Positions 1 through 37,014 of a stretch of 37,194 nucleotides of DNA are shown piece after piece. Source of the DNA: an uncultured Muribaculaceae bacterium (GTDB taxonomy: Bacteria; Bacillota_I; Bacilli_A; RF39; UBA660); NCBI GenBank assembly GCA_964644815.1, contig CAZXXI010000001.1, positions 1 through 37,194 on the forward strand, in the 5' to 3' direction. The notes under the pieces were generated by a model, which saw only the letters and a program-made list of their open reading frames with translations, was not told where the DNA came from and did not search any database. The translations under genes were made by a program, and so were the position numbers. Within the stretch, counting starts at the first letter, position 1. Every line of letters starts with the position of its first letter.

Positions 1-41
1 GAGAAAAATGAAATCTGTCCGGTATAATAATAAGTAGAGGG
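1..41 (+). promoter_or_regulatory. Copy 1 of a 41-nt conserved promoter-like element (GAGAAAAATnnAATCTnTCCGGTATAATAATAAGTAGAGGG); possibly cut by the window edge
   Basis: 39/41 identical to the copies at 21103-21143 and 34834-34874. Perfect TATAAT at 23-28. AGGAGGA follows 7 nt after the core. Confidence 0.6.
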
Positions 42-60: not shown

Positions 61-114
61 ATGCGCCTTATATTTTTGCTGAAGCTTTTAGCGGGTTTAT
101 TACTATTTTTGTAG
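61..114 (+). CDS. 17-codon hydrophobic micro-ORF (MRLIFLLKLLAGLLLFL)
   Basis: ATG preceded by AAAGGAGGA at 47-55 with about 5-nt spacing. Entirely hydrophobic apart from R2 and K8. Lies between the conserved element and the exporter gene. Too short for the ORF track. Confidence 0.3.
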   Translation: MRLIFLLKLLAGLLLFL

Positions 115-131
115 TTAGAAAGGAGTAACCC

Positions 132-2147
132 ATGCGCAAAAACGTTATATATATCCAAGAAGATGCTTCTTCCTGTGGAGCAGTATCTATCGCCAGCATT
201 CTCTCCTTTTATGGAGGATATGTTCCTTTAGAAAAGATTTTAGAGGACACTTCGACTGATAAGTCGGGTACTAATGCCTTAGAACTGGTGCGTGCGCTAT
301 CCCTATACGGATTCTCGGCAACGGGTAAAAGAGTAAGTGAAAAGGATTTAGGCTCTCTTACCTTGCCAGCGATTGCCCACGTCTCTATAGATGGCTATGA
401 ACACTTCGTCGTCATCTACGAGCTCAAAGGAAGCAATATTATCGCGATGGACCCCGCCTGTGGCAAAAAGATTTACTCTAAAGATGAATTTAGAAAAATA
501 TTTACCGGGCACGTAATAGAAGTCGTCAAAGAGGGCGATATTCCCCATTACCGAAAAAGTCAAAGTATCAGACGACTACTATTAAACGTATTAAAAACTC
601 AGCGCAGAAACATCTTTAAAATCGCCATTCTCAATATAGCTATAGCGCTTTTGGGAATATTGTCGTCATTCCATCTGAAGGCTTTGAGTATCGTCTCGGA
701 TGCTCTTATAGTGACCGCTTTATTCGTCATCATAAGAGTCATTGCCTTCGAACTCTCTAACGTGCGCATTATCGCCTTAGAACACTTAAACAAGCGTTTA
801 GAAGACGATACCGTCTACAAATTCGTCGACCACCTACTGCAGATGCCGCTTTCTGTTTTAAAAAGGAAGAGGACGGGTGAGTTGCTGCGCAAAGTAGAAG
901 AACTTTCCTTCATCAAAGAGTTAGTCGTCCGCCTATGTTTTCTAAACACTTTGGACGTCCTTACCATCATCATGACTCTCGTGATATCTTCTAGTATTTC
1001 GAAAAGGCTTACTTGCATTTACTTAGTGCTCGCTATAGGAATCGTCCTTTTGACGCCATTTTTAAAGAAAAAGATATTCAGAAGTACTAAGGAGGTCTTA
1101 AAGAGTAACGACGAATATAAAAGCACTTTAATAGAGACGCTCGACGCTATCGAAAGCGTTAAGAACTTGAATAAAGAGGATGTATTTTTAGAGACAGCGG
1201 GAGCTGATTTAAAAAAATATACCGGTATGCGGGAAAGGGCAAATCGTTTTCTCACGATGACGGATGAACTGAAGATGTATATTTACGATTCTGCTATCTT
1301 TTTAGTAAACTTCATAGGTTTTTCTCTTTTGAACGAATCTTTTACACTTTATGACCTCATGCTCATCGAATCGCTTTTTGCCTTATTGTATTCGTCTTTA
1401 GAGAGCTTGATGGATACTTTTGTCCATCTCATTAAAGCTAAAGTATCCTATCGGTCTTTATCCGAATTATTAGATGTCGAAGAAGAAAAGCGGACATCAT
1501 CGGTCAAAGAAGACTTTAAAGACATAGCTATAACCGATTTCAGTTATTCTTATGACTCCTTAAATCGCGTCGTAGATGGCATCTCTCTTCGCATCGCAAG
1601 AGGAGATAAAATACTTCTATGTGGCCCATCCGGTGTGGGTAAGAGCACCCTGGTGAAGTGCCTTGCCGGATACTACGCTTCCTATATGGGAAAAATATCT
1701 TTGAACGGAAAGGACATTAAAAGTCTAGGTACGAACATTCTTCGCAACTATATCGTATATGTCGGACAAGAAGAAACACTCTTTAGAAAATCCGTCGCCG
1801 AAAATATCGCTTTAGGTGATTTTGACGAAAAGCGGTTTAAAGAAGTGATAGCCATGACGAAAGTCGATGAAATAATAAAAAAGAGACGCGAGGGCAAAGA
1901 CACCGTCCTTTTAGAAGGGGCGTCCAATCTATCGGGAGGAGAGCGTTCGCGGATTATCCTAGCGCGTGCCTTATACAAAAGACCGGCCGTTCTCATCGTC
2001 GATGAAACGCTTTCGAGTGTCGATTTGGATATGGAAGATGAAATCATCGCCAACCTGCAAAGCATGGAAGAACTAACTCTCATATATATAACGCACCGCG
2101 ACAAAAAGAAATTATTTAATGATGTAATTACACTTAGAAAGGATTGA
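132..2147 (+). CDS. Peptide/bacteriocin ABC exporter with N-terminal C39 peptidase domain (ComA/LagD/BlpA-like)
   Basis: N-terminus QEDASSCGAVSIASILSFYGG (Gln9/Cys15) plus EHFVVIY His and MDPA Asp give the C39 catalytic set. A six-helix-like hydrophobic core follows. Walker A GPSGVGKST, signature LSGGERSR, Walker B LIVDETLS, H-loop ITHR. SD GAAAGGAG precedes the ATG. Confidence 0.92.
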   Translation: MRKNVIYIQEDASSCGAVSIASILSFYGGYVPLEKILEDTSTDKSGTNALELVRALSLYGFSATGKRVSEKDLGSLTLPAIAHVSIDGYEHFVVIYELKGSNIIAMDPACGKKIYSKDEFRKIFTGHVIEVVKEGDIPHYRKSQSIRRLLLNVLKTQRRNIFKIAILNIAIALLGILSSFHLKALSIVSDALIVTALFVIIRVIAFELSNVRIIALEHLNKRLEDDTVYKFVDHLLQMPLSVLKRKRTGELLRKVEELSFIKELVVRLCFLNTLDVLTIIMTLVISSSISKRLTCIYLVLAIGIVLLTPFLKKKIFRSTKEVLKSNDEYKSTLIETLDAIESVKNLNKEDVFLETAGADLKKYTGMRERANRFLTMTDELKMYIYDSAIFLVNFIGFSLLNESFTLYDLMLIESLFALLYSSLESLMDTFVHLIKAKVSYRSLSELLDVEEEKRTSSVKEDFKDIAITDFSYSYDSLNRVVDGISLRIARGDKILLCGPSGVGKSTLVKCLAGYYASYMGKISLNGKDIKSLGTNILRNYIVYVGQEETLFRKSVAENIALGDFDEKRFKEVIAMTKVDEIIKKRREGKDTVLLEGASNLSGGERSRIILARALYKRPAVLIVDETLSSVDLDMEDEIIANLQSMEELTLIYITHRDKKKLFNDVITLRKD

Positions 2148-2296: not shown

Positions 2297-2455
2297 ATGA
2301 TATTAAAAAATGAAGAATTGACAAAAATAACGGGTGGAGGAGCTATAAGTGGAACGCTTCTAAATGCCGTCGCCAAGTTGGTCGAAACTCTATACGACAC
2401 GGGCAAACAAATAGGCAGAACACTCTTTAAAATATACCATAAAAATTATTGTTAA
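2297..2455 (+). CDS. Double-glycine-leader peptide 2 (52 aa; predicted mature 38 aa GAISGTLLNAVAKLVETLYDTGKQIGRTLFKIYHKNYC)
   Basis: My own translation: MILKNEELTKITGG|GAIS... Same leader consensus positions as peptide 1. SD AAGAGGAG lies 5 nt upstream. Cationic and amphipathic, with GxxxG motifs (GAISG, GKQIG). Confidence 0.7.
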   Translation: MILKNEELTKITGGGAISGTLLNAVAKLVETLYDTGKQIGRTLFKIYHKNYC

Positions 2456-2518: not shown

Positions 2519-3601
2519 ATTATAGAAGACGCATTAAAGCTGTTAAAGAAAATAGAAGAAAAGGGCTATCCGGCCTATATCGTCGGAGGATTCGTAAGAG
2601 ATTATCTTCTCGGTATCGTCTCGTGCGACGTCGACATAGCTACCTCGGCTAAGCCAAAAGAGATTCGCGAAATATTCTCTATAACATCGGGTGAAGCTTT
2701 TGGTAGTCAACGTTTTAATTATCGCGATTTAAATGTCGATGTGACGACTTTTAGAATAGAAGGCGACTATGAATTTAGGCGTCCTACTAAAGTGGAATAT
2801 GTCACGGATGTTTTAACCGATTTAAAACGGAGAGACTTCACAGTCAATGCCATCTGTCTCGATAGCAAGGGTAACATCTATGACCCCTTACACGGCTTTC
2901 AGGACCTCCAAAATCGGCTTATCCGTGTGATTGGTGAGCCGGCAGTCAAATTTAACGACGACCCTTTGCGCGTCATGCGGGCACTGCGTTTCGCTATTAT
3001 GTACGATTTCGAAATAGAGCAATCGGCTCTCGAATATATATTGGAGCATAAAGAATTGATTAAAAAGATATCTTATGATAGAAAGAAGCGCGAACTGGAT
3101 AAAATACTTCTTTCTAAAAAAGCTAAACGTGGCCTTCAATATTTAAAAGAACTGGGTCTTCTCGAAGTGCTAGAGATTTCCTTTGACGATAACTTTAGAA
3201 CGAATTACGACATAATCGGTTCTTGGTCGGAATTGGAGTTTTCGCCAAATTATCCCTTCACTAAGTTAGAGAAGAAACGCATCGCTTTGCTGCGCGAAAT
3301 CGTCAAAAAGAAAACAGTAAACAGAGAAACTATTTTTGAAGCAGGGCTATATGATTCACTGGTCGCTGGCGATATCTTGCGAATAGAACGCGAAGATATA
3401 TTGAAAATATACGACGAATTACCGATACGTAACGACAGCGAACTGGCCATCGACGGTGAGCGAATAAAAAGTATTTTAAACATCCCAACTGGGCCACTTA
3501 TAAAAGAAATCAAAAAAGACTTGCTAAGAGAAGTAATAAGTGGTAATCTACCTAATAGAGACAAAGAGTTAGAAGAATATATAAAAGAGAAGTGGAAGTG
3601 A
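2519..3601 (+). CDS. cca: CCA-adding tRNA nucleotidyltransferase; 5' end non-canonical (ATT/ATA start or 1-nt indel)
   Basis: The frame is open from 2516 and encodes ..ALKLLKKIEEKGYPAYIVGGFVRDYLLG..DVDIATSA..RRDFTVNA, the poly(A) polymerase/CCA head domain. This lies upstream of the ORF-track GTG at 2741. No ATG, GTG or TTG is in frame before 2741. SD AAAGGGTGA at 2504-2512 sits 6 nt before ATT 2519. Confidence 0.8.
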   Translation: MIEDALKLLKKIEEKGYPAYIVGGFVRDYLLGIVSCDVDIATSAKPKEIREIFSITSGEAFGSQRFNYRDLNVDVTTFRIEGDYEFRRPTKVEYVTDVLTDLKRRDFTVNAICLDSKGNIYDPLHGFQDLQNRLIRVIGEPAVKFNDDPLRVMRALRFAIMYDFEIEQSALEYILEHKELIKKISYDRKKRELDKILLSKKAKRGLQYLKELGLLEVLEISFDDNFRTNYDIIGSWSELEFSPNYPFTKLEKKRIALLREIVKKKTVNRETIFEAGLYDSLVAGDILRIEREDILKIYDELPIRNDSELAIDGERIKSILNIPTGPLIKEIKKDLLREVISGNLPNRDKELEEYIKEKWK

Positions 3602-3605
3602 AAAC

Positions 3606-4004
3606 ATGGGCGATACTATCGTTAAATTGTATCAAAAACAAAATTTTGTCATAGGCGAAGACATCCTTCGAACTATCAAAAAAAACGATTTAACTTTAGA
3701 CGAAGCTCTTTTAATAATCTACTTCTGTGGCAATAATACTCATCCCATCTTAGATGTCGACGAGATAAGGGAGAAATTCGGTATGTCCGAACTGGCCATC
3801 ATGAAAGCCTTTTCCAATATTACTAATAGAAACCTCATTTCAATCAAAATGGAGAAAAACCGCGATGGCAAAGTAGAGGAAATCATCGATTTGACCCCCT
3901 TTTACGCTTCTATCGCTATCGACATAAACGAAAGCGTGAAGAAATCGAACGACGAATCCGTCTTTAATCTCTTCGAACGCGAATTCGGAAGGCCTCTATC
4001 TTAG
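3606..4004 (+). CDS. dnaD: DnaD replication-initiation protein, N-terminal fragment (ends at in-frame TAG)
   Basis: Winged-helix-like N-domain ending in FEREFGRPLS, which is the start of the conserved DnaD C-domain motif F..EFGRPLSP.E.E. Same frame as 4005-4256. dnaD-nth synteny as in B. subtilis. Confidence 0.75.
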   Translation: MGDTIVKLYQKQNFVIGEDILRTIKKNDLTLDEALLIIYFCGNNTHPILDVDEIREKFGMSELAIMKAFSNITNRNLISIKMEKNRDGKVEEIIDLTPFYASIAIDINESVKKSNDESVFNLFEREFGRPLS

Positions 4005-4256
4005 ATGGAATTTGAACCCATCAATAATTGGTTAGATAAGGGCTACAGCGAAGAACTCATCAACAGTGCACTAAAAGAGGCCATTTTCAACGGATCCTTT
4101 ACTCTTAGATACATCGACGCCATTCTTATCGAATGGAACAAAAAGGGCCTGAAAAATGGCAAAGAAGTGGAATTATATTTAAAGCGGAGAAAACAGCCGA
4201 AGGTCAGAAATGACGACGCCCTCTTCGACTACAATTGGTTAGATGATGAAGAATAG
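4005..4256 (+). CDS. dnaD: DnaD replication-initiation protein, C-terminal (DnaD/DnaB_2 domain) fragment
   Basis: MEFEPINNWLDKGYSEELINSALKEAIFNGSFTLRYIDAILIEWNKKGLK matches the DnaD C-domain (..FRYIDRIL.EW.K.G). The ATG directly follows the TAG of the upstream fragment, in the same frame. Confidence 0.75.
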   Translation: MEFEPINNWLDKGYSEELINSALKEAIFNGSFTLRYIDAILIEWNKKGLKNGKEVELYLKRRKQPKVRNDDALFDYNWLDDEE

Positions 4257-9336: not shown

Positions 9337-9927
9337 ATGAAAATCGAATCGGCAGAGCTTACCAATATTGCAGTTAGGACAGACCAATATCCGAAGGGTG
9401 ACGACCCGGAGTTTTTACTCGTCGGACGAAGCAATGTAGGGAAAAGCAGTTTCATAAACACTATAATAAACAAAAAGAATTATGCGCACACATCGAGCAC
9501 ACCAGGAAAAACGCAGACTCTGAATTTCTATTTTGTAAATAGCTCTTTTTACCTCGTAGACGTTCCCGGCTATGGCTATGCTAAAGTCGACAAGCCTACC
9601 CAAAAGAAATTCGGACTCATGATAGAGGACTACTTAAAGACTCGTTACACTCTAAAAAGAGTTTTCTTGCTCATCGACTTTAGAATTAGGCCTACGGAAG
9701 ACGACGTCTTGATGTATAACTACTTAAAATATTATAAGATTCCCGTTACCGTCGTCGCTACCAAGTTCGACAAAGTTAAAATGAAGGCTCGTGACAAACA
9801 GATGAAAATCGTCGAAGAGACCATCAAACTCGAAGATGGCGACGACATAGTCTATTTCTCCAGCGTCAACAAAAAGGGTAAGCAGGAAATATACAATATA
9901 ATAGAGAGCTACTTAGATGAAATCTAA
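9337..9927 (+). CDS. engB: Ribosome-biogenesis GTPase EngB/YsxC
   Basis: G1 GRSNVGKSSFIN, G3 DVPGYG, G4 TKFDK; about 195 aa. Confidence 0.9.
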   Translation: MKIESAELTNIAVRTDQYPKGDDPEFLLVGRSNVGKSSFINTIINKKNYAHTSSTPGKTQTLNFYFVNSSFYLVDVPGYGYAKVDKPTQKKFGLMIEDYLKTRYTLKRVFLLIDFRIRPTEDDVLMYNYLKYYKIPVTVVATKFDKVKMKARDKQMKIVEETIKLEDGDDIVYFSSVNKKGKQEIYNIIESYLDEI

Positions 9928-9946
9928 GTTTTTCTTTTGGTAAAAA

Positions 9947-10015
9947 TTCGCCAAACTCGGAAGTAAACCTGCGCCAAATTCGGAAGTAAAATTGCGCCAA
10001 ATTCGGAAGTAAAAT
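9947..10015. repeat. Three tandem 23-bp direct repeats (TGCGCCAAATTCGGAAGTAAAAT)
   Basis: 9970-9992 and 9993-10015 are identical. 9947-9969 matches at 19/23. The array ends 1 nt before the -35 of the next promoter. Confidence 0.85.
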
Positions 10016-10016
10016 G

Positions 10017-10045
10017 TTGCTAAACATAGAAGTATACGTTATAAT
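10017..10045 (+). promoter_or_regulatory. Sigma-A-type promoter TTGCTA-17-TATAAT
   Basis: -35 at 10017-10022, -10 at 10040-10045, 23 nt upstream of the ATPase ATG. Confidence 0.5.
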
Positions 10046-10068: not shown

Positions 10069-11358
10069 ATGGATAAATATATGCCTAGATTGGTAGATGA
10101 TTATATATCTAAACGCATGGAACTGTTTGGAGCAATACTCATCGAAGGTTGCAAATGGTGTGGCAAATCGACGACGGGAAGACAGTTTTCTAAGAGCATT
10201 TTAGAATTTCAAAATCCCGATATGTATAAGAATAATAAACAAATTGCGAATACCCAACCGTCACTATTTTTAGAAAGGGAAAAGCCTTTACTCATAGATG
10301 AATGGCAAGTGTTTCCAATAGTTTGGGACTCGATAAGATACGATGTAGACAAAACGAGACTCAAAGGGCAGTACATTTTGACGGGTTCAGCTACTCCTAG
10401 AGAAAACTATTCTAACGAAGGCGAAGATAATATACCGAAACACACAGGAACAGGAAGAATCGCTCGCGTTTTAATGAGGCCTATGTCGCTTTATGAATCG
10501 GAGGAATCGACTGGTGAAGTGTCTTTAAAAAGTCTTTTCGACGGTAATGCAGATATAAAGGGAATTTCTAAACAAAATTTGAAAGATATCGCTTTTCTAA
10601 TCGCCCGCGGCGGCTGGCCAGAAGCAGTAGATGTCCATGCCGAAAAAGCCTTGATATATGCTAATGAATATATCGAAATGATTATAAATAAAGATATCCA
10701 CGAAATAGACGGCACTAAAAGGAGTCCGGCTAAAGTAAGGGGTGTATTGAAAAGTCTTGCTAGAAATGTTTCTTCGACGGCGAGCTTATCGACGATTAAA
10801 GCTGATGTCGATATCGCAGAAGATATCGTTTCTGAAAAGACGATTGCCAATTACATCGATGCTTTAGAAAAGATGTTTGTCTTGGAGAAGGTCGATTGCT
10901 GGCAGCCAAAACTTAGAAGCAAAACAGTTATAAGGTCTAGTGAGAAAAGAGAGTTTACTGACCCATCTCTCGCCATGGCGGCTCTCAAAGCCACTGATAA
11001 AGATTTATTACAAGACTTTAATACGTTTGGTTTGATGTTCGAAGCTATGTGTATAAGAGATTTGAGAATATACTCCCAAAATTTAGAGGGTGAAGTATTT
11101 TACTATCGTGATAAAAATGGCCTCGAATGCGACGCAGTAGTTCATTTACACAATGGAAGATGGGCTGCCATCGAAGTAAAACTAGGTGGAAATGAAGTAT
11201 TGGACGAAGCTGCCAAAAATTTATTAAAATTCAAAGAAGTAATTGATGTCAATAAGATGAACGAACCTTCTTTCTTGATGATACTGACCGCAACGGAATA
11301 CGCCTATCGAAGAGAAGATGGCGTAATAGTATGTCCTTTAGGATGCCTTAAAAATTGA
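10069..11358 (+). CDS. AAA-family ATPase with DUF4143-type C-terminal domain (AAA_14/DUF4143 ATP-binding protein)
   Basis: Walker A GCKWCGKST, Walker B LLIDEWQ, about 430 aa. The overall layout is typical of the widespread DUF4143 ATPases. Confidence 0.7.
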   Translation: MDKYMPRLVDDYISKRMELFGAILIEGCKWCGKSTTGRQFSKSILEFQNPDMYKNNKQIANTQPSLFLEREKPLLIDEWQVFPIVWDSIRYDVDKTRLKGQYILTGSATPRENYSNEGEDNIPKHTGTGRIARVLMRPMSLYESEESTGEVSLKSLFDGNADIKGISKQNLKDIAFLIARGGWPEAVDVHAEKALIYANEYIEMIINKDIHEIDGTKRSPAKVRGVLKSLARNVSSTASLSTIKADVDIAEDIVSEKTIANYIDALEKMFVLEKVDCWQPKLRSKTVIRSSEKREFTDPSLAMAALKATDKDLLQDFNTFGLMFEAMCIRDLRIYSQNLEGEVFYYRDKNGLECDAVVHLHNGRWAAIEVKLGGNEVLDEAAKNLLKFKEVIDVNKMNEPSFLMILTATEYAYRREDGVIVCPLGCLKN

Positions 11359-21019: not shown

Positions 21020-21102
21020 TTTTGAGTTACAAAATGCCATATAAAATGAGAAAATGAAAAGTAACTTCTGTCTACTTTTTTCCTCTTTTGTTCATTTTTG
21101 AT

Positions 21103-21143
21103 GAGAAAAATCCAATCTGTCCGGTATAATAATAAGTAGAGGG
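21103..21143 (+). promoter_or_regulatory. Copy 2 of the 41-nt conserved promoter-like element
   Basis: GAGAAAAATCCAATCTGTCCGGTATAATAATAAGTAGAGGG. TATAAT at 21125-21130. AGGAGGA follows 7 nt after the core. Confidence 0.6.
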
Positions 21144-21163: not shown

Positions 21164-21192
21164 TTGACAAACCAAAATTCGTAGTTTACAAT
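21164..21192 (+). promoter_or_regulatory. Canonical sigma-A promoter of recA (TTGACA-17-TACAAT)
   Basis: -35 at 21164-21169, -10 at 21187-21192, 24 nt upstream of the recA ATG. Confidence 0.6.
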
Positions 21193-21215: not shown

Positions 21216-22268
21216 ATGAAAAAAGAAACGACTACAGCTAATAAAAATAAAGATAAAGCTTTAGAAGAAGTCATGGCCCAAATCGAAAAACAGTTCGGTA
21301 AAGGGGCCATTATGAAACTTGGAAGTGAAGAGCACATCCAAGTAGAAGCGACGCCTACTGGGTCTTTAGGACTCGACATAGCTTTAGGTGTCGGAGGTTA
21401 TCCAAAAGGACGCATCATCGAAATATTTGGACCGGAATCGAGTGGTAAGACGACCTTTGCCCTAGAGGCGATAGCCGAATGCCAAAAAAGAGGTGGCCGC
21501 TGTGCATTCATCGATGCCGAACACGCATTGGACCCCATCTATAGTAAAAATTTGGGAGTAAATATCGACGAATTGCTATTGAGCCAGCCGGATACAGGAG
21601 AGCAAGCCTTAGAAATCGTCGACGCTCTTGTCAAGAGCGAAGCTGTCAACTTGATAGTCATCGATTCCGTCGCCGCTTTGGTACCTAAAGCTGAAATAGA
21701 GGGCGAGATGGGCGATTCCCACGTCGGATTGCAAGCTCGCCTCATGAGCCAAGCGCTGCGCAAACTCTCTGGCACTATCAACAAAACTTCGACGACTGCC
21801 ATATTTATCAACCAGCTGCGCGAAAAAGTCGGCGTCATGTTCGGAAATCCGGAGACTACTCCCGGTGGACGCGCACTCAAATTCTATGCTTCTGTCCGCC
21901 TCGACATTAGAAAGGGCGAAGCTATTAAAAATGGCGACCAAATAATCGGTAATAAGACCAAAGTTAAAGTAGTCAAAAACAAAGTAGCACCACCTTTTAG
22001 AAGCATCGAAGTCGACATAATGTACGGCGAAGGCGTCTCCAAAGAGGGCGAACTTTTGGACATCGGAACCGACATCGACATCATCGAAAAATCGGGTGCT
22101 TGGTATGCCTATAATGGTGAGAAAATCGGGCAAGGTAAAGAAAACGCTAAAATATACTTGAAAGAAAATCCGGTGACTGCTCGCGAAATCGAAGATAAGA
22201 TTCGCGCTCACTACGAAATAGCTGAAAAAGAAGCTAAAAAAGCGAAATCTAATGAAAAAGACGAATAA
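21216..22268 (+). CDS. recA: Recombinase RecA
   Basis: Unmistakable RecA sequence: GPESSGKTT Walker [10 protein letters not shown] Walker B, L2 loop region. SD AGGAGG. Confidence 0.98.
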
Positions 22269-22340: not shown

Positions 22341-23318
22341 GTGCTTAAAACATATCTCAAAGAATGCGGACTGACCGACGATAAAATAGATTACGTACTA
22401 AAGTGTTTAAGACTGAACTATCATAAACACGAGACTGTACTTAGCCATCTCGAAGAAAACGTCACCTATTTAAAAGATTTCGGTTTCCAAAAAAGACAAA
22501 TATGTACGATTCTAACGACTTGCATAGCTATCTATCAGATAACAAAAGATTTATTAGAAAAGCGTTTGCAATATTTTTTAGATAACGGCTTGACGACCAA
22601 AGAAGTAATAAAAATCTACTCTACTAGGAGTCGACTCATCACTTTCAGTATAGCTAATATAGAAGGAAAAATAAAAACATATGTTGCCTATGGCTTCAAA
22701 AGAGAAGAAATATTTGCCCTCTGTAGGAAATACCCCCAAATTTTCACTTTGGCACCCGAGACAATTCTAGCTAGAATGAAGTTCATTATAAGCCTTGGGC
22801 TCGCTAAAAAAGAGGCCATGACTTTGGTCATAAAAAATCCCAGCACTCTAGGTTTAACCGAAGAAAATCTATCTGCTAAAATAGCCGTTCTCTCAGCGCT
22901 AGGATTGAAAAATAAAGAAGTGGCTCTCGTCGTAAAGTCTTTCCCAGGAGTTATGAATCTGACACCAAAGAACGTCCAAAGAAAAATAGCACTTTTGCAA
23001 GAGTTCAATTATAATAGTGAAGAGATTAAAAGATTAGTCGTCGGATTTCCTGCTCTTTTGGGCTTGTCCATCGATAATCTGCGCGCAAAACTCGCTTTAG
23101 TTAAAGACTGTGACATCAAGGATTTAATCGTCAAAAAGCCCAAAAACTTAATGCAGAGTAGAGAATTGACTGAAAGAAGATATCTTTTCCTATCTACCCT
23201 TGAGATTAGCAATTTGAGTTTAGCTAACTATCTATTCGCGACGCCAAGTCGCTTTGCTCAAAAGTTTAACGTAGACGATGAAGAATTGAAGAAAAAATAT
23301 GAAAAGGAGATGCAATAA
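22341..23318 (+). CDS. Helical-repeat protein with about eight 35-aa mTERF-like repeats
   Basis: Repeats such as LGLAKKEAMTLVIKNPSTLGLTEENLSAKIAVL / LGLKNKEVALVVKSFPGVMNLTPKNVQRKIALL / FNYNSEEIKRLVVGFPALLGLSIDNLRAKLALV fit the mTERF pattern (G-f-s..e....v...P.il..s.e.l..k). GTG start with SD AAGGGGA. Confidence 0.65.
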   Translation: MLKTYLKECGLTDDKIDYVLKCLRLNYHKHETVLSHLEENVTYLKDFGFQKRQICTILTTCIAIYQITKDLLEKRLQYFLDNGLTTKEVIKIYSTRSRLITFSIANIEGKIKTYVAYGFKREEIFALCRKYPQIFTLAPETILARMKFIISLGLAKKEAMTLVIKNPSTLGLTEENLSAKIAVLSALGLKNKEVALVVKSFPGVMNLTPKNVQRKIALLQEFNYNSEEIKRLVVGFPALLGLSIDNLRAKLALVKDCDIKDLIVKKPKNLMQSRELTERRYLFLSTLEISNLSLANYLFATPSRFAQKFNVDDEELKKKYEKEMQ

Positions 23319-24304
23319 TGGAAGAAAGTATAACTATGTATAGAGATTACGGCATAACGGAATGGAGAGAGAAGTGTCTAGTTTTGACATCCATCGAAAA
23401 AGCTGCTGTCGAAAGAGATTTGCAAGACGAGATAAACTCGCCCTTAGCCGCCATCGTCAAATTGCCTTTTCCACACTTTGCCGCAATTTATTTACAGAGA
23501 TTCCCAAGTGCTATAAATCTCATAAAAGACCCTGCTATCGGCTATAAACTCTACATGTTATCAGACCCCGCTTTGCGACTTGTCATCGAAGAACACCGCA
23601 ATCCGACTAAAATCCGTTCAACTTTGCAAAAAGAGATGCAAATATCTCCTAACACGACAGATGAAATCGACCAAATATTACACATTCCTCTCGAAGATTC
23701 ATTGAAGATTATCAGTTCCAAAGAAAACAACGTAGTGCGCGAGAAGAAATTTTATTATTTGACCCAGTATATCGATTTAAAGGAGGCCAAACGAATAGGG
23801 CTATCCCAAGCTCTGGTTTTCGAATTAGATGGAGTAGACGGTTTTGAGCTTGAGAAAAAATTATCGCTATTGAATCCTATCGCTAGGACGATAGTAGCTC
23901 TTTCTATAGGGCTCTATGGTGAACATAGACATACTTTAAAAGATATATCCGATTGTATTAAAATACCGCCTCAAAAGATTAAGAAAATACATGACTTTTT
24001 GTTGCCGTTACTATTGAAAACTCGTGGCGAAATGGCGCATATTATCGGTTTAAAGAGTGGAATCTTCGGTATGGACGATACGCGCGAGTATACCAATTTA
24101 ACGTACAGAGAACTCGACATAAGTATGGAACTGGCTTACATCAAAGCCCACTTAAACGAAAGAGACCGATTAGTATTGAGTTCTTATTCAAAAAAAGAAA
24201 TCGATATCTACTTGGCGAGTAAGTATTTATTTAAAACGCCGGCTTCCTTAGCAACTAATATGAGTTTATCGCTTGAAGAAGCCAGAAACAGACTTGGGCT
24301 TTAG
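23318..24304 (+). CDS. Hypothetical protein with two sigma-70 region-4-like HTH segments
   Basis: LNPIARTIVALSIGLYGEHRHTLKDISDCIKIPPQKIKKIHDFLL and LNERDRLVLSSY...ASLATNMSLSLEEARNRL resemble the region-4 pattern L..rer.vl.l.yGl....tl.eIa..l.vs...v.... The start overlaps the upstream stop codon (TAATG). Confidence 0.5.
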   Translation: MEESITMYRDYGITEWREKCLVLTSIEKAAVERDLQDEINSPLAAIVKLPFPHFAAIYLQRFPSAINLIKDPAIGYKLYMLSDPALRLVIEEHRNPTKIRSTLQKEMQISPNTTDEIDQILHIPLEDSLKIISSKENNVVREKKFYYLTQYIDLKEAKRIGLSQALVFELDGVDGFELEKKLSLLNPIARTIVALSIGLYGEHRHTLKDISDCIKIPPQKIKKIHDFLLPLLLKTRGEMAHIIGLKSGIFGMDDTREYTNLTYRELDISMELAYIKAHLNERDRLVLSSYSKKEIDIYLASKYLFKTPASLATNMSLSLEEARNRLGL

Positions 24305-34196: not shown

Positions 34197-34832
34197 ATGG
34201 TATTATTTAGAACTACGTTTTTTTACTTCTTCGTCATGGCGATGTATCGCATCATGGGTAAACGCGAAATCGCTCAGCTTGGTGTCGTCGACCTCATCGT
34301 ATCGATTCTGATTGCCGAACTCGTCGCTATTAGCATCGAAAACCTAGAGGATTCTATTTTCATGACAATCATTCCCATCGCTCTTTTGGTAGCCTTAGAG
34401 ATTGTTCTAGCGAGACTAGCTTTAAAATCCAAAAAAATCAGGACGATTTTTGGTGGTAAACCGTCAGTCATCATCGAAAAGGGCAAAGTGAACTTCAAAG
34501 AAATGGTCCGCCAGCGCTATACGATGGACGATTTACTATTCGAACTGCGCCAAAAGAGCATCAAAAGCTTAGAATCCATCGAATATGCTTTACTGGAACC
34601 TAACGGCAAACTTTCGATTTTCGAAAAAAAACTCTTCGACAAAAACGTACCACTTCCACTCATCGTCGATGGTCAAATTCAATATAGCACTCTCAAACTA
34701 TTAGGAAAATCGAAACTTTGGCTCAAAACTCAACTATATAATAAAAACCTCTTGCCGAGCGACGTCTTCTACTGTTTTTATAAGGGCTGCAATCTCTACA
34801 TCGTAAAAAATCAAGATTTAATCTCTAAATGA
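34197..34832 (+). CDS. DUF421 (YetF-like) membrane protein
   Basis: MYRIMGKREIAQLGVVDLIVSILIAELVA is the DUF421 signature. ATG 34197 was chosen because it follows the terminator hairpin. Confidence 0.8.
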   Translation: MVLFRTTFFYFFVMAMYRIMGKREIAQLGVVDLIVSILIAELVAISIENLEDSIFMTIIPIALLVALEIVLARLALKSKKIRTIFGGKPSVIIEKGKVNFKEMVRQRYTMDDLLFELRQKSIKSLESIEYALLEPNGKLSIFEKKLFDKNVPLPLIVDGQIQYSTLKLLGKSKLWLKTQLYNKNLLPSDVFYCFYKGCNLYIVKNQDLISK

Positions 34833-34833
34833 T

Positions 34834-34874
34834 GAGAAAAATCAAATCTATCCGGTATAATAATAAGTAGAGGG
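34834..34874 (+). promoter_or_regulatory. Copy 3 of the 41-nt conserved promoter-like element
   Basis: GAGAAAAATCAAATCTATCCGGTATAATAATAAGTAGAGGG. TATAAT at 34856-34861. Starts 2 nt after the DUF421 gene's stop codon. Confidence 0.6.
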
Positions 34875-34932
34875 GTCTTTATTTCGACAAAAAGTTTGCT
34901 CGCCTTATAGTATCATTACACTAGGTGATGAT

Positions 34933-35358
34933 ATGAAAAAATTAAGACCAGTAATTTTTGCAGTATTGACGGGCTGTCTCTGTGCGTTTTTCCTCTTTAA
35001 AGAAGTCGAAAGCCGAACGCTCGACGACATTTCCTACAATGCCGTTGCAATACAGATAGGCGTCTTTAAAGACAAGAATACTGCTGAAGAGTTAAAAGAT
35101 AAACTAGGTGGAGTAGTCGTTTTAGATGACGATATATATCGCATCTATTATTCAGTTCTAAATAGGGACGAAAATATAGAGTTTATGACCGATTACCTTT
35201 CTAAAAAGGGCATCAGCTATTACTTAAAGGATATTCGTCTCAAAGACGAATTAGCTTCTGAACTGAAGGAATATGAACGCCTGATGATCAAGACGAATGA
35301 GGAGAGCAAACTTTCTATCAACGAAGAAATACTGAATAGATATAAGGAAGTGATTTAG
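34933..35358 (+). CDS. Membrane-anchored SPOR-domain-like protein
   Basis: N-terminal TM helix. AIQIGVFKDKNTAEELKDKL....IYRIYYSVL fits the SPOR pattern (vQ.Gaf....A..l...l ... yrv.vg). Confidence 0.55.
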   Translation: MKKLRPVIFAVLTGCLCAFFLFKEVESRTLDDISYNAVAIQIGVFKDKNTAEELKDKLGGVVVLDDDIYRIYYSVLNRDENIEFMTDYLSKKGISYYLKDIRLKDELASELKEYERLMIKTNEESKLSINEEILNRYKEVI

Positions 35359-36057
35359 ATGTCCACATTAAAAGATGAAATAACTAAAGAAGACATGCCC
35401 CGCGAAAGATTGTTACACTACGGCGCGGAGAGTCTATCCAACGACGAACTGCTCGCCGTTTTATTGCGTACGGGAACAAAAGGAAAATCGGTCAAAGAAC
35501 TCGCACGCAATGTCCTTACGACTTATGGAACCGTCCAAAATTTGAGGCTGATTACAACCCAAAAACTCCAAGATATAAAGGGACTCGGAGCAGTCAAAGC
35601 AGTAACATTGCTCGCCGCACTCGAACTAGGGCGCCGAGTTTTTGAAGAAAATCCTATTCAAAAGAAGCTCCAACTGAAAAATTCATATGACGTATATAAA
35701 TACTTCGGCAAATACATCGCTCATGAAAAACAGGAAAATTTTCTCGTCATCTACTTAGACACTCAAAAACAGTACATCACACATAAAATTATTTTTAAAG
35801 GTACTCTCGATTCGTCAGTCGTCCATCCGCGCGAAATATTCAAACTGGCACTTCTAGAAAGTGCATCTAGTATCGTCTTGATGCATAATCACCCGAGCGA
35901 AGTCCTAGACCCTAGCAAGGCCGATGACGACGCTACCGCGACTATAATCGAAGCCGGAGAAATCATCGGCATTCACGTCTTAGACCACTTAATCGTGAAT
36001 CCTCATGATTATTACAGTTATATCGAGAAAGGAAGAATCCATTATGAAGAAAACTAA
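35359..36057 (+). CDS. radC: RadC-family JAB-domain protein
   Basis: N-terminal PRERLL..G...LS..ELLA.LLRTG, HhH (GLGAVKAV), JAMM motif HNHPSEVLDPSKAD. Confidence 0.92.
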   Translation: MSTLKDEITKEDMPRERLLHYGAESLSNDELLAVLLRTGTKGKSVKELARNVLTTYGTVQNLRLITTQKLQDIKGLGAVKAVTLLAALELGRRVFEENPIQKKLQLKNSYDVYKYFGKYIAHEKQENFLVIYLDTQKQYITHKIIFKGTLDSSVVHPREIFKLALLESASSIVLMHNHPSEVLDPSKADDDATATIIEAGEIIGIHVLDHLIVNPHDYYSYIEKGRIHYEEN

Positions 36058-36715
36058 ACCCTTTATCGGCGTCATATTGACTCTCTTCGCATTTCTGATT
36101 TTGCACAATGCCATCGTGATAGCTCTAGGCAACTTTGCCACTATATTTCGCAAAGATAATAGAGAAGATTTATTCAAAGAGACATATGAAAAAAAGATTC
36201 AAGCTCTCGAAATTGCCGTATCCGAATATGAAAAATCTCTTCAGAACCTGGACATATTTTCTAACTCTGCCAATGTGTTAGCGAAAATTTCTCTTCGCAA
36301 CATCTACGATTTCTACGACTATCTCATCATCTCCACGGACAAAAAAGTCTCCGTCGGCGACGCTGTCATCAACGAAGGAGGCCTTGTCGGTACGATTAAA
36401 GAGGCAAACAAATACACCGCGAAAGTTGCTCTTTTAACGGGTTCCAATAAGATAAGCGTCAGAGTAGGGGATAACTTCGGAATGTTGAGCGAATACGACA
36501 AGAAAAACGGCGAACTCGTCATCCATAACATCGATAACTATAAAACGGTCGAAGAGGGCACAAAAGTCTACACGAGTGGACTCCAAGAAATCGACAAAAA
36601 CATATTGGTAGGAACTGTTAAAAGGATAGACAACAACGGTATCGAAAAGACAGTATACGTGACTCCCTCCGTCGACTTCGATAACTTAAACTATCTCATA
36701 GTAGAGGCCAAATGA
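36044..36715 (+). CDS. mreC: Rod-shape-determining protein MreC
   Basis: ATG 36044 with SD GAAAGGAAG. N-terminal TM helix, coiled coil, beta-rich C-domain (GLVGTIKE.., VYTSGL). radC-mreC-mreD synteny. Confidence 0.8.
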   Translation: MKKTKPFIGVILTLFAFLILHNAIVIALGNFATIFRKDNREDLFKETYEKKIQALEIAVSEYEKSLQNLDIFSNSANVLAKISLRNIYDFYDYLIISTDKKVSVGDAVINEGGLVGTIKEANKYTAKVALLTGSNKISVRVGDNFGMLSEYDKKNGELVIHNIDNYKTVEEGTKVYTSGLQEIDKNILVGTVKRIDNNGIEKTVYVTPSVDFDNLNYLIVEAK

Positions 36716-37014
36716 TATATCTTCTGATAATTCTCGATTTCCTAGCTTATACCTTCAGTTCTTATCGAACGCACTTGATAATATTAGGAATTCCTTATCT
36801 TACAGATTTTAAACCCATTTTAATATATTTTCTCATCTTATCTTTTTTCGACGCAAGATACCTCTTTAATCTGGCGGTATTATATGGTCTATTTAAGCTG
36901 AATAAATATATCGACAAAAAAATACAGCCCACGACTTTCATATACATTGTAAAAGTCGCTATATATTTTATTTTATATCTCTTGTTGACGAATATATATA
37001 CGCTATTTTGTTAA
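36712..37014 (+). CDS. mreD: Probable MreD (short, 100 aa) polytopic membrane protein
   Basis: ATGA overlap with mreC, and hydrophobic throughout. Called by position only, and shorter than typical MreD. Confidence 0.45.
   Translation: MIYLLIILDFLAYTFSSYRTHLIILGIPYLTDFKPILIYFLILSFFDARYLFNLAVLYGLFKLNKYIDKKIQPTTFIYIVKVAIYFILYLLLTNIYTLFC

Follow-up and report, generated by a model that had tools for sequence, protein, structure and literature searches.

The window analysed here is the complete 37194-nt contig CAZXXI010000001.1 of an uncultured bacterium, which has a GC content of 40% and carries three near-identical copies of a short intergenic element, referred to below as the element. All copies lie on the + strand and each is located upstream of a different operon, namely (i) an operon for a C39-peptidase exporter and double-glycine (GG) leader peptides, (ii) recA and the genes that follow it, and (iii) a gene set comprising a SPOR-like gene, radC, mreC and mreD; the remaining genes of the contig are ordinary housekeeping genes. 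A pattern search with the 41-mer over the whole window, allowing at most three mismatches, returned exactly the positions given for the element in a preliminary description of this DNA (1-41, 21103-21143, and 34834-34874) and no fourth match. The same pattern gave no match in 100 dinucleotide-preserving shuffles of the window, so that none is expected by chance, and the element family was the top direct repeat of the window in a repeat search. Any two copies differ at 2 of the 41 positions, as had been described, the differences being confined to element positions 10, 11, and 17, and the reported TGAT is present directly upstream of copies 2 and 3. No intermediate or degenerate copies occur in the window: the next-best match of a 45-mer has 20 mismatches, which agrees with the earlier observation that no other intergenic regions are similar in this way. 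The true conserved unit is 43 nt long, as it begins 2 nt earlier, at an ATG (21101 and 34832). Copy 1 is cut, as reported, and the cause is the real end of the contig, which removes the first two nucleotides (AT), rather than an artefact of windowing.

Relatives were reached by means of homologs of RecA, the exporter, and RadC, and their contigs were fetched as loci (L-numbers). The element was found at three orthologous positions in about 12 related genomes, with each copy co-oriented with the downstream gene. In the gap between murT and recA it is carried by L004/5, L006-8, and L024/25; upstream of a 17-aa open reading frame (ORF) and the exporter gene it is carried as full copies by L018-20 and L021 and by L009 and L010, whose contigs start inside the element; and in the gap between DUF421 and the SPOR-like gene it is carried by L001, L011, and L012/13/15/17, with L014 and L016 again starting inside it. 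The gene order around all three loci is conserved in the relatives. Mean pairwise identity amounts to 79% over the 43-nt unit versus 30 and 34% in the two adjoining 30-nt flanks, the two latter values representing the random level for this composition. The neighboring proteins are overall 49-73% identical between the relatives and the window, and the individual identities to the window are 55-66% for MurT, 56-60% for RadC, 49-57% for the SPOR-like protein, and 41-52% for the exporter. The elements of the window and L001 share 95% identity, although their RadC proteins are 56% identical. At the recA locus of L023 (RecA 88% identical) the first conserved block of the element (block 1, see below) is retained and the remainder has decayed, and the outgroup L022 (RecA 80% identical) has no element at recA. 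Judged by these comparisons of sequence, the element is to be regarded as old, fixed, vertically inherited, and kept by strong purifying selection. That the copies of one genome evolve in concert was rejected as an explanation, since L001 has almost the same version of the element at the RadC divergence given above, which is explained by purifying selection on the consensus. The variants of spacer and leader common to the three copies of the window are missing from the recA orthologs.

Table 1. Position of the element copies and of the genes and promoter-like sites discussed in the text, in coordinates of the 37194-nt window.
Feature	Position	Strand	Description
Copy 1	1..41	+	-10 TATAAT at 23-28; first 2 nt missing; orthologs in L009, L010, L018-20, L021
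17-aa mini-ORF MRLIFLLKLLAGLLLFL	61..114	+	First gene of the copy-1 operon
C39-peptidase ABC exporter	132..2147	+	Pfam Peptidase_C39, ABC_membrane, ABC_tran
Two double-glycine-leader peptide genes	2152-2295, ~2297-2455	+	Leaders ...LSIEGGG and ...LTKITGGG in the translations
Copy 2 (recA P1)	21101..21143	+	-10 TATAAT at 21125-21130; orthologs in L004/5, L006-8, L024/25
recA promoter P2, TTGACA-17-TACAAT	21164..21192	+	In tandem, 20 nt 3' of copy 2
recA	21216..22268	+	Pfam RecA, E 1.4e-142
mTERF-domain protein	22341..23318	+	Pfam PF02536, E 6.7e-35; directly after recA
328-aa protein	23318..24304	+	Sigma-70 region-4-like helix-turn-helix at ~residues 181-237
Copy 3	34832..34874	+	-10 TATAAT at 34856-34861; orthologs in L001, L011, L012/13/15/17
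Second promoter-like site, TCGACA-16-TATAGT	34884..34911	+	9 nt 3' of copy 3
Operon 3' of copy 3	34933..37014	+	141-aa membrane protein, then radC, mreC, mreD

Near-identical copies within one genome would also be expected of a short repeat that is mobile or selfish (of the MITE, REP, or BOX type) or of a recently propagated mobile promoter, and the contigs of several assemblies do break inside the element: five contigs from five assemblies (window, L009, L010, L014, and L016) begin at position 1 within it. Such breaks in Logan contigs (k=31) mean that at least two copies sharing about 30 nt are present in those genomes, as is the case for copies 1 and 2 of the window. They reflect the identity of the copies and not a high copy number, because eight other Logan contigs run through the element uninterrupted; in these organisms its length and identity suffice to interrupt k=31 assemblies. 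Where the preliminary description had named a REP- or MITE-like distribution, with no bias in orientation or position relative to genes, as the outcome that would speak against a promoter, the element was found at three orthologous, co-oriented sites only. These sites are the same in the approximately 12 genomes, with no presence/absence polymorphism except for the decay in L023. No hairpin, inverted-repeat partner, or terminal inverted repeats were found for the element, which occurs in a single orientation. An nhmmer profile built from seven copies detected no extra copies in the window and in the fetched loci, which are partly redundant and total about 290 kb. When 185,579 GTDB species genomes were scanned for an exact 23-mer, one further copy was obtained, that of L001 (labelled 'uncultured Tenericutes'), and a 19-mer occurred twice in JGI metagenomes, both times by chance and with nothing similar beyond it. 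A scan of viral contigs and a blastn search of plasmids gave no match to the element, and a phage blastn search gave two weak partial matches only (E 0.1 and 4). A mobile origin of this kind is thus extremely improbable.

For the analysis of the substitution pattern 13 versions of the element were aligned (alignment A3). The parts follow each other in the order block 1 (ATGAGAAAAAT), a semi-variable spacer of 9 nt, CCGG, a -10 hexamer, and AATAAGTAGAGGG, and conservation ends abruptly on both sides. Block 1 is nearly invariant among the 13 versions, the sole variant being GTGAGAAAATT in L018, and AATAAGTAGAGGG accepts few changes (GTGAAGGG, GTGAGGGA, and a 1-nt deletion in L012). The hexamer reads [T/A]A[T/A]AAT, occurring as TATAAT, AATAAT, and TAAAAT, and its bases 2, 4, 5, and 6 are invariant in 13/13. 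A-11 and T-7 are the essential bases of a sigma-A -10 hexamer, and because these two are always kept the variation of the hexamer fits a working sigma-A -10. In the -35 region, ATGAGA at a spacer of 18 nt matches TTGACA at 4/6 positions and TGAGAA at 17 nt matches it at 2/6, and a simple promoter scan called ATGAGA-18-hexamer as sigma-70-like in every species with 9-10 of 12 matching positions (10 of 12 in the window). Elsewhere in the contig, intergenic promoters are of the form TTGnnn-17-TATAAT. Block 1 differs from TTGnnn and is therefore probably not a housekeeping -35; its eleven bases around -35 are fixed between genera, without drift toward TTG. Conservation also covers CCGG and the 13 nt downstream of the -10 hexamer. 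The proposal that the element needs an activator or an alternative sigma factor is reasonable in view of this atypical -35 region compared with the TTGnnn promoters, and is weakened by the 4/6 score of ATGAGA at 18 nt. To our knowledge none of the consensus sequences of SigH, SigB, SigD, ECF/SigW, the sporulation sigma factors, or sigma-54 fits the element convincingly by eye, and the same applies to the CodY, ComK, WalR, LytTR-repeat, CtsR, and other Bacillota boxes known to us.

Two explanations at the level of RNA or peptide were also considered. A structured RNA or a known RNA family was ruled out, as the consensus fold of the element is weak (-1.25 kcal/mol) with no covariation, hence no conserved RNA structure, and as no Rfam family matched within the window. 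The element could alternatively encode a leader or regulatory peptide, since it contains a 12-codon frame, ATG AGA AAA ... AAG TAG (MRK-x4-R-Y/N-N-N-K), which is intact at 12 codons in eight full variants and whose stop is retained as TGA (L004, L006) or TAG (L024) despite nearby changes; the start is GTG in L018, and the ATG of L001 runs into the preceding stop codon (ATGA). No ribosome-binding site precedes this frame in any copy, however, and in L021 it is ended after eight codons by a premature TAA and in L012-17 extended to 18 codons by a 1-nt deletion, with the downstream DNA still conserved. Synonymous changes are missing from block 1, and the codons in the middle vary freely in the amino acid encoded, which points to conservation at the nucleotide level, and the retained stop is weak evidence because a purine-rich stretch after T gives a stop in 3/4 cases. 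We consider the frame a coincidence, and a coding role very improbable.

The reading that we favor, and regard as probable, is that the element represents a vertically inherited promoter of the regulon type, with a dedicated factor binding block 1. RNA polymerase would recognize the sigma-A-type -10 [T/A]A[T/A]AAT and start transcription about 6-8 nt further on, at the G or A of AAGTAGAGGG. Block 1 (ATGAGAAAAAT, at about -36 to -26) would replace a TTGnnn -35 and serve as the docking site of an activator or of a domain resembling sigma region 4. CCGG (-16 to -13) and AATAAGTAGAGGG, corresponding to the discriminator and the first transcribed bases, may provide extra contacts or a common purine-rich 5' leader resembling a ribosome-binding site. 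The first transcribed bases, GUAGAGGGG, do resemble such a site, and an additional reader or a common 5' leader is suggested because conservation exceeds the usual needs of polymerase. Three units would in this manner be tied together: the 17-aa peptide, C39 exporter, and GG-leader peptides; recA and its downstream genes; and the SPOR-like gene, radC, and mreCD. At recA and SPOR-radC an ordinary promoter follows the element in tandem, so that the element would there contribute a conditional input. The preliminary description of a promoter-like element co-oriented upstream of three non-homologous operons is supported, and the element is kept at orthologous sites; the transcription start at the element, the dedicated factor, and the nature of the signal we infer from sequence.

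Several points weigh against this reading. The conserved spacer-proximal CCGG and the conserved stretch of 13 nt that follows the -10 hexamer exceed what polymerase alone normally demands, the canonical promoters just downstream at recA and SPOR-radC mean that the element could be an upstream operator there, ATGAGA with an 18-nt spacer is, at 4/6, compatible with a plain sigma-A promoter, and both the transcription start and the factor at the element are predictions. It may hence be asked if the element amounts to no more than a strong sigma-A core promoter of the ordinary type, which needs no dedicated factor and was reused at the three loci long ago. Each of its parts would then add output (the ATGAGA -35 at 18 nt, CCGG, the perfect -10, an AT-rich discriminator, and a purine-rich leader stabilizing the mRNA), and condition-specific control would come from the neighborhood, that is, from a LexA box at the exporter, TTCGACA at SPOR-radC, and the P2 region at recA. 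The uniform sigma-70-like calls of the simple scan and the substitution pattern of the -10 hexamer fit this explanation, the neighboring motifs are indeed different at each locus, and near-identical promoters before unrelated genes are documented (PMC3575422). Yet the eleven near-invariant bases around -35 do not converge on the TTG of the contig, and 79% identity over 43 nt between genera with 50-70% identical proteins is atypical of such a promoter. We therefore consider this explanation unlikely.

The exporter locus is the one at which a promoter is needed exactly at the element, because the upstream gene ends in a terminator in L018 and L021 and, in the window, the ribosome-binding site follows the element at a distance of just 7 nt. 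No sigma-70-like site other than the element precedes the first gene's ribosome-binding site on the + strand of L018 and L021. The AGGAGGA downstream of copy 1 is the ribosome-binding site of the conserved 17-aa mini-ORF, for which a strong site (AAAGGAGG) lies 7 nt 3' of the copy. Hydrophobic and cationic mini-ORFs of the same length were found in L009 (47-100), L010, L018 (two copies, ~9843-9990), and L021 (~3253-3306), for example MRLIFLLKLLAGLLLFL and MFYKIIKIVKYIFMIFF; they have no GG leader, and possible roles of the product are those of a small toxin, an immunity peptide, or a leaderless peptide. The operon carries two GG-leader peptides in addition to the C39 exporter, in keeping with what had been described. 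These peptides are predicted bacteriocin or pheromone precursors, and genes of 50-60 aa are located at the same place in the relatives.

Copy 2 is positioned in the 222-nt divergent gap between murT and recA, and its predicted transcription start (P1) would be near 21136-21138. The canonical promoter that the preliminary description had assigned to recA itself was found again as P2 (Table 1), and it is kept in all recA orthologs, including that of L022, which has no element. The AGGAGGA reported at exactly 7 nt after copies 1 and 2 is present at both; the instance after copy 2 is not kept in the orthologs and is probably due to chance. The spacer of P2 is itself conserved across the clade (TTGACAAAC..AAA....GTAGTTTACAAT), and L022 has a palindrome, CAAACAAATGTTTG, just upstream of the equivalent recA promoter (~9920-9935); either of the two could be an unrecognized operator. 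Compared with L004-L008, the window contains a specific insertion of 56 nt upstream of copy 2 (21045-21100), which holds a degenerate second block 1, AATGAGAAAATG.

Copy 3 abuts the TGA stop of a DUF421/YetF gene, starting 2 nt after and overlapping it, with no terminator in between. The 141-aa membrane protein encoded downstream has a SPOR match below threshold (E 0.029) and a weak match to FtsN, and the order SPOR-like gene, radC, mreC, mreD is repeated in L001 and L011-L017. The sequence TTCGACA (34881-34887), found 5-9 nt 3' of copy 3, is invariant in four species (window, L001, L011, and L012); it is the reverse complement of the Spo0A box TGTCGAA and doubles as the -35 of the second promoter.

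With canonical promoters 9-20 nt downstream at 2/3 loci and copy 3 abutting an upstream stop codon with no terminator, the element might instead act as a long operator or roadblock for a DNA-binding protein, e.g., of the mTERF-like or two-helix-turn-helix (two-HTH) type, which would modulate or insulate these downstream promoters. Long contiguous conservation would suit a repeat-type DNA binder, and genes for such proteins are present in the recA operon. At the exporter locus, however, there is no second promoter, the ribosome-binding site is 7 nt away, and a terminator lies upstream in L018 and L021. The pattern of invariant A-11 and T-7 is moreover specific to a -10 hexamer, and the mTERF gene was not seen beside recA in the relatives. 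An operator function is for these reasons quite improbable.

As for the type of regulon, the preliminary description had hypothesized control by competence (ComX). The cin-box of streptococcal ComX is the 8-mer TACGAATA (PMC6224593), which has 0 matches on either strand of the window, the element having CCGGTATAAT instead. The genes comG, comE, comF, dprA, ssbB, and coiA were found neither in the window nor in the fetched loci, and lone N_methyl (pilin-like) genes in L011-L014 and L022 are without the element. With no cin-box in the window, a -10 of the sigma-A type, and pilin-like genes without the element, a competence regulon is not supported. The Cheo/LexA box (GAAC-N4-GTTC) was correctly stated to be missing at recA: it is found neither in the element nor anywhere else in the window, nor at recA in four other species, which leaves recA without a Cheo box in five species. 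In the whole of the fetched DNA, intergenic Cheo boxes were found solely as the perfect palindromes CGAACATTTGTTCG and AGAACATACGTTCT, which are located at the exporter-locus element of L018-20 and L021 (L018 9735-9748 and L021 3149-3162), 27-28 nt upstream of it. LexA boxes are used in the clade, because these perfect boxes occur at the exporter locus; their position near -70 is too far upstream for simple occlusion of the promoter. They suggest SOS control of a Gram-positive operon for GG-peptide export, and as the signal we lean toward DNA damage or stress over competence. The clade also has sporulation genes (SpoIIP, SpoIIIAH, GerM, and a SirA-like gene), which together with the invariant TTCGACA after copy 3 make a stationary-phase signal possible.

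Two proteins encoded downstream of recA were examined as putative readers of the element. The first is the mTERF-domain protein. Prokaryotic mTERF-like proteins are sequence-specific DNA binders that were first described in 2024, with distant homologs only (PMC11417379). The protein of the window may thus be a sequence-specific DNA binder, and its link to the element is speculative; that its gene was not seen next to recA in the relatives counts against it as the reader.

The second is the 328-aa protein, a member of a clade-restricted family (~330 aa; 70 representatives among 1.84 billion proteins) with a second HTH-like segment at the C-terminus. The family profile matches PDB entries of sigma-70 region 4 of SigA, RpoS, and RpoD with E-values of 8e-4 to 0.05. 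An AF2 model with a pLDDT of 96 matched isolated region-4 structures locally (probability 0.91-0.97, TM 0.7-0.77, ~2 Å), and the global Foldseek match of the model to sigma factors was not significant (E 0.3 or worse); a single-sequence AF2 model had a pLDDT of 48 and was not usable. Identification as RecX was rejected, as no match was obtained by Pfam, PDB profile, or Foldseek, and identification as a full sigma factor is not established, the region-4-like domain being the only part supported. Members of the family follow recA in L006-8 (L006 9491-11589) and L024/25 (L024 11136-12191), and the gene is not next to recA in L023 and L022, the two species with a decayed and a missing element, respectively. 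In further relatives a linkage of the family to recA is suggested solely by contigs of identical length. Three species hence have the family beside recA together with an intact element and two species have neither, a co-occurrence that is suggestive only, and the 328-aa protein is a speculative candidate for the reader. In the most specific form of this proposal, the element would be the cognate promoter of a new, clade-restricted sigma-like or two-HTH factor of the 328-aa family, which would recognize ATGAGAAAAAT instead of a -35 and drive its own expression from the recA operon. We hold this to be unlikely; if true, it would amount to a LexA-independent recA/radC/bacteriocin regulon in uncultured spore-forming Bacillota and to a functional analog of ComX or PafBC.

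Should the element be a regulon promoter, as we favor, it would open a way into the gene regulation of a lineage for which metagenomes are the only source, and recA, radC with the cell-shape genes, and the bacteriocin-type exporter are predicted to switch together. Control of recA would be predicted to operate without a LexA box, in genomes that do have such boxes at other places. Promoters seldom stay near-invariant over 43 nt from one genus to another, which makes the element a strong bait for finding its reader.

Two further features of the contig were recorded. An in-frame TAG at 4002-4004 divides the dnaD gene (3606-4256) into one ORF for DnaD_N and one for DnaB_2, while L009, L010, and L021 carry dnaD as a single gene of 216 aa; the split could reflect a pseudogene, a sequencing error, or read-through. 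Use of genetic code 4 was ruled out as a cause of split genes, as TGA serves as stop (standard code). Upstream of a gene for an AAA_14/DUF4143 ATPase (10069-11358) there are about four tandem repeats of 23 nt (GTAAAAATTCGCCAAACTCGGAA-like; 9940-10031). This is likely an inserted gene with iteron-like repeats, because it is absent from the same position in L009 and L010.

Among known systems, the ComX/SigX cin-box resembles the element in that a short conserved box joins recA, radC, and bacteriocin-type genes and in that a dedicated factor, in the case of the element a putative one, takes the place of a normal -35. It differs in that the element has a sigma-A -10 (TATAAT) and conservation over 43 nt versus an 8-mer, and the cin-box itself is absent from the window. 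Promoter reuse is likewise known, with highly similar promoters ('putative mobile' promoters) occurring before non-homologous genes within one genome (PMC3575422). The near-identical element before the exporter, recA, and SPOR-radC is alike in this respect, whereas its copies are ancient, fixed at orthologous loci across genera, and held by selection, with no signs of recent movement. The LexA/Cheo SOS operators of Bacillota are comparable in their targets, since recA and a bacteriocin-type operon are typical SOS targets; the element, in contrast, has no Cheo box and recA is without one in the five species. In Actinobacteria, the RecA-NDp/PafBC promoters are LexA-independent DNA damage promoters with an atypical upstream half, located before recA and repair genes that lack LexA control or have it in addition. 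A conserved sequence with an atypical upstream half before recA and repair genes is shared with the element, while the phylum and the sequence are different and no WYL-domain regulator was identified here. Class II activator sites overlap the -35, as in the marboxes of MarA/SoxS, and may involve appropriated contacts of sigma region 4. The element is similar in having an asymmetric conserved block at the -35 of a promoter with a good -10, which by analogy a two-HTH monomer could read; the analogy is a pure one, no sequence similarity having been found. Seen against these systems, the 43-nt element would be a further example of regulon-specific promoters, remarkable mainly for its length and its degree of conservation.

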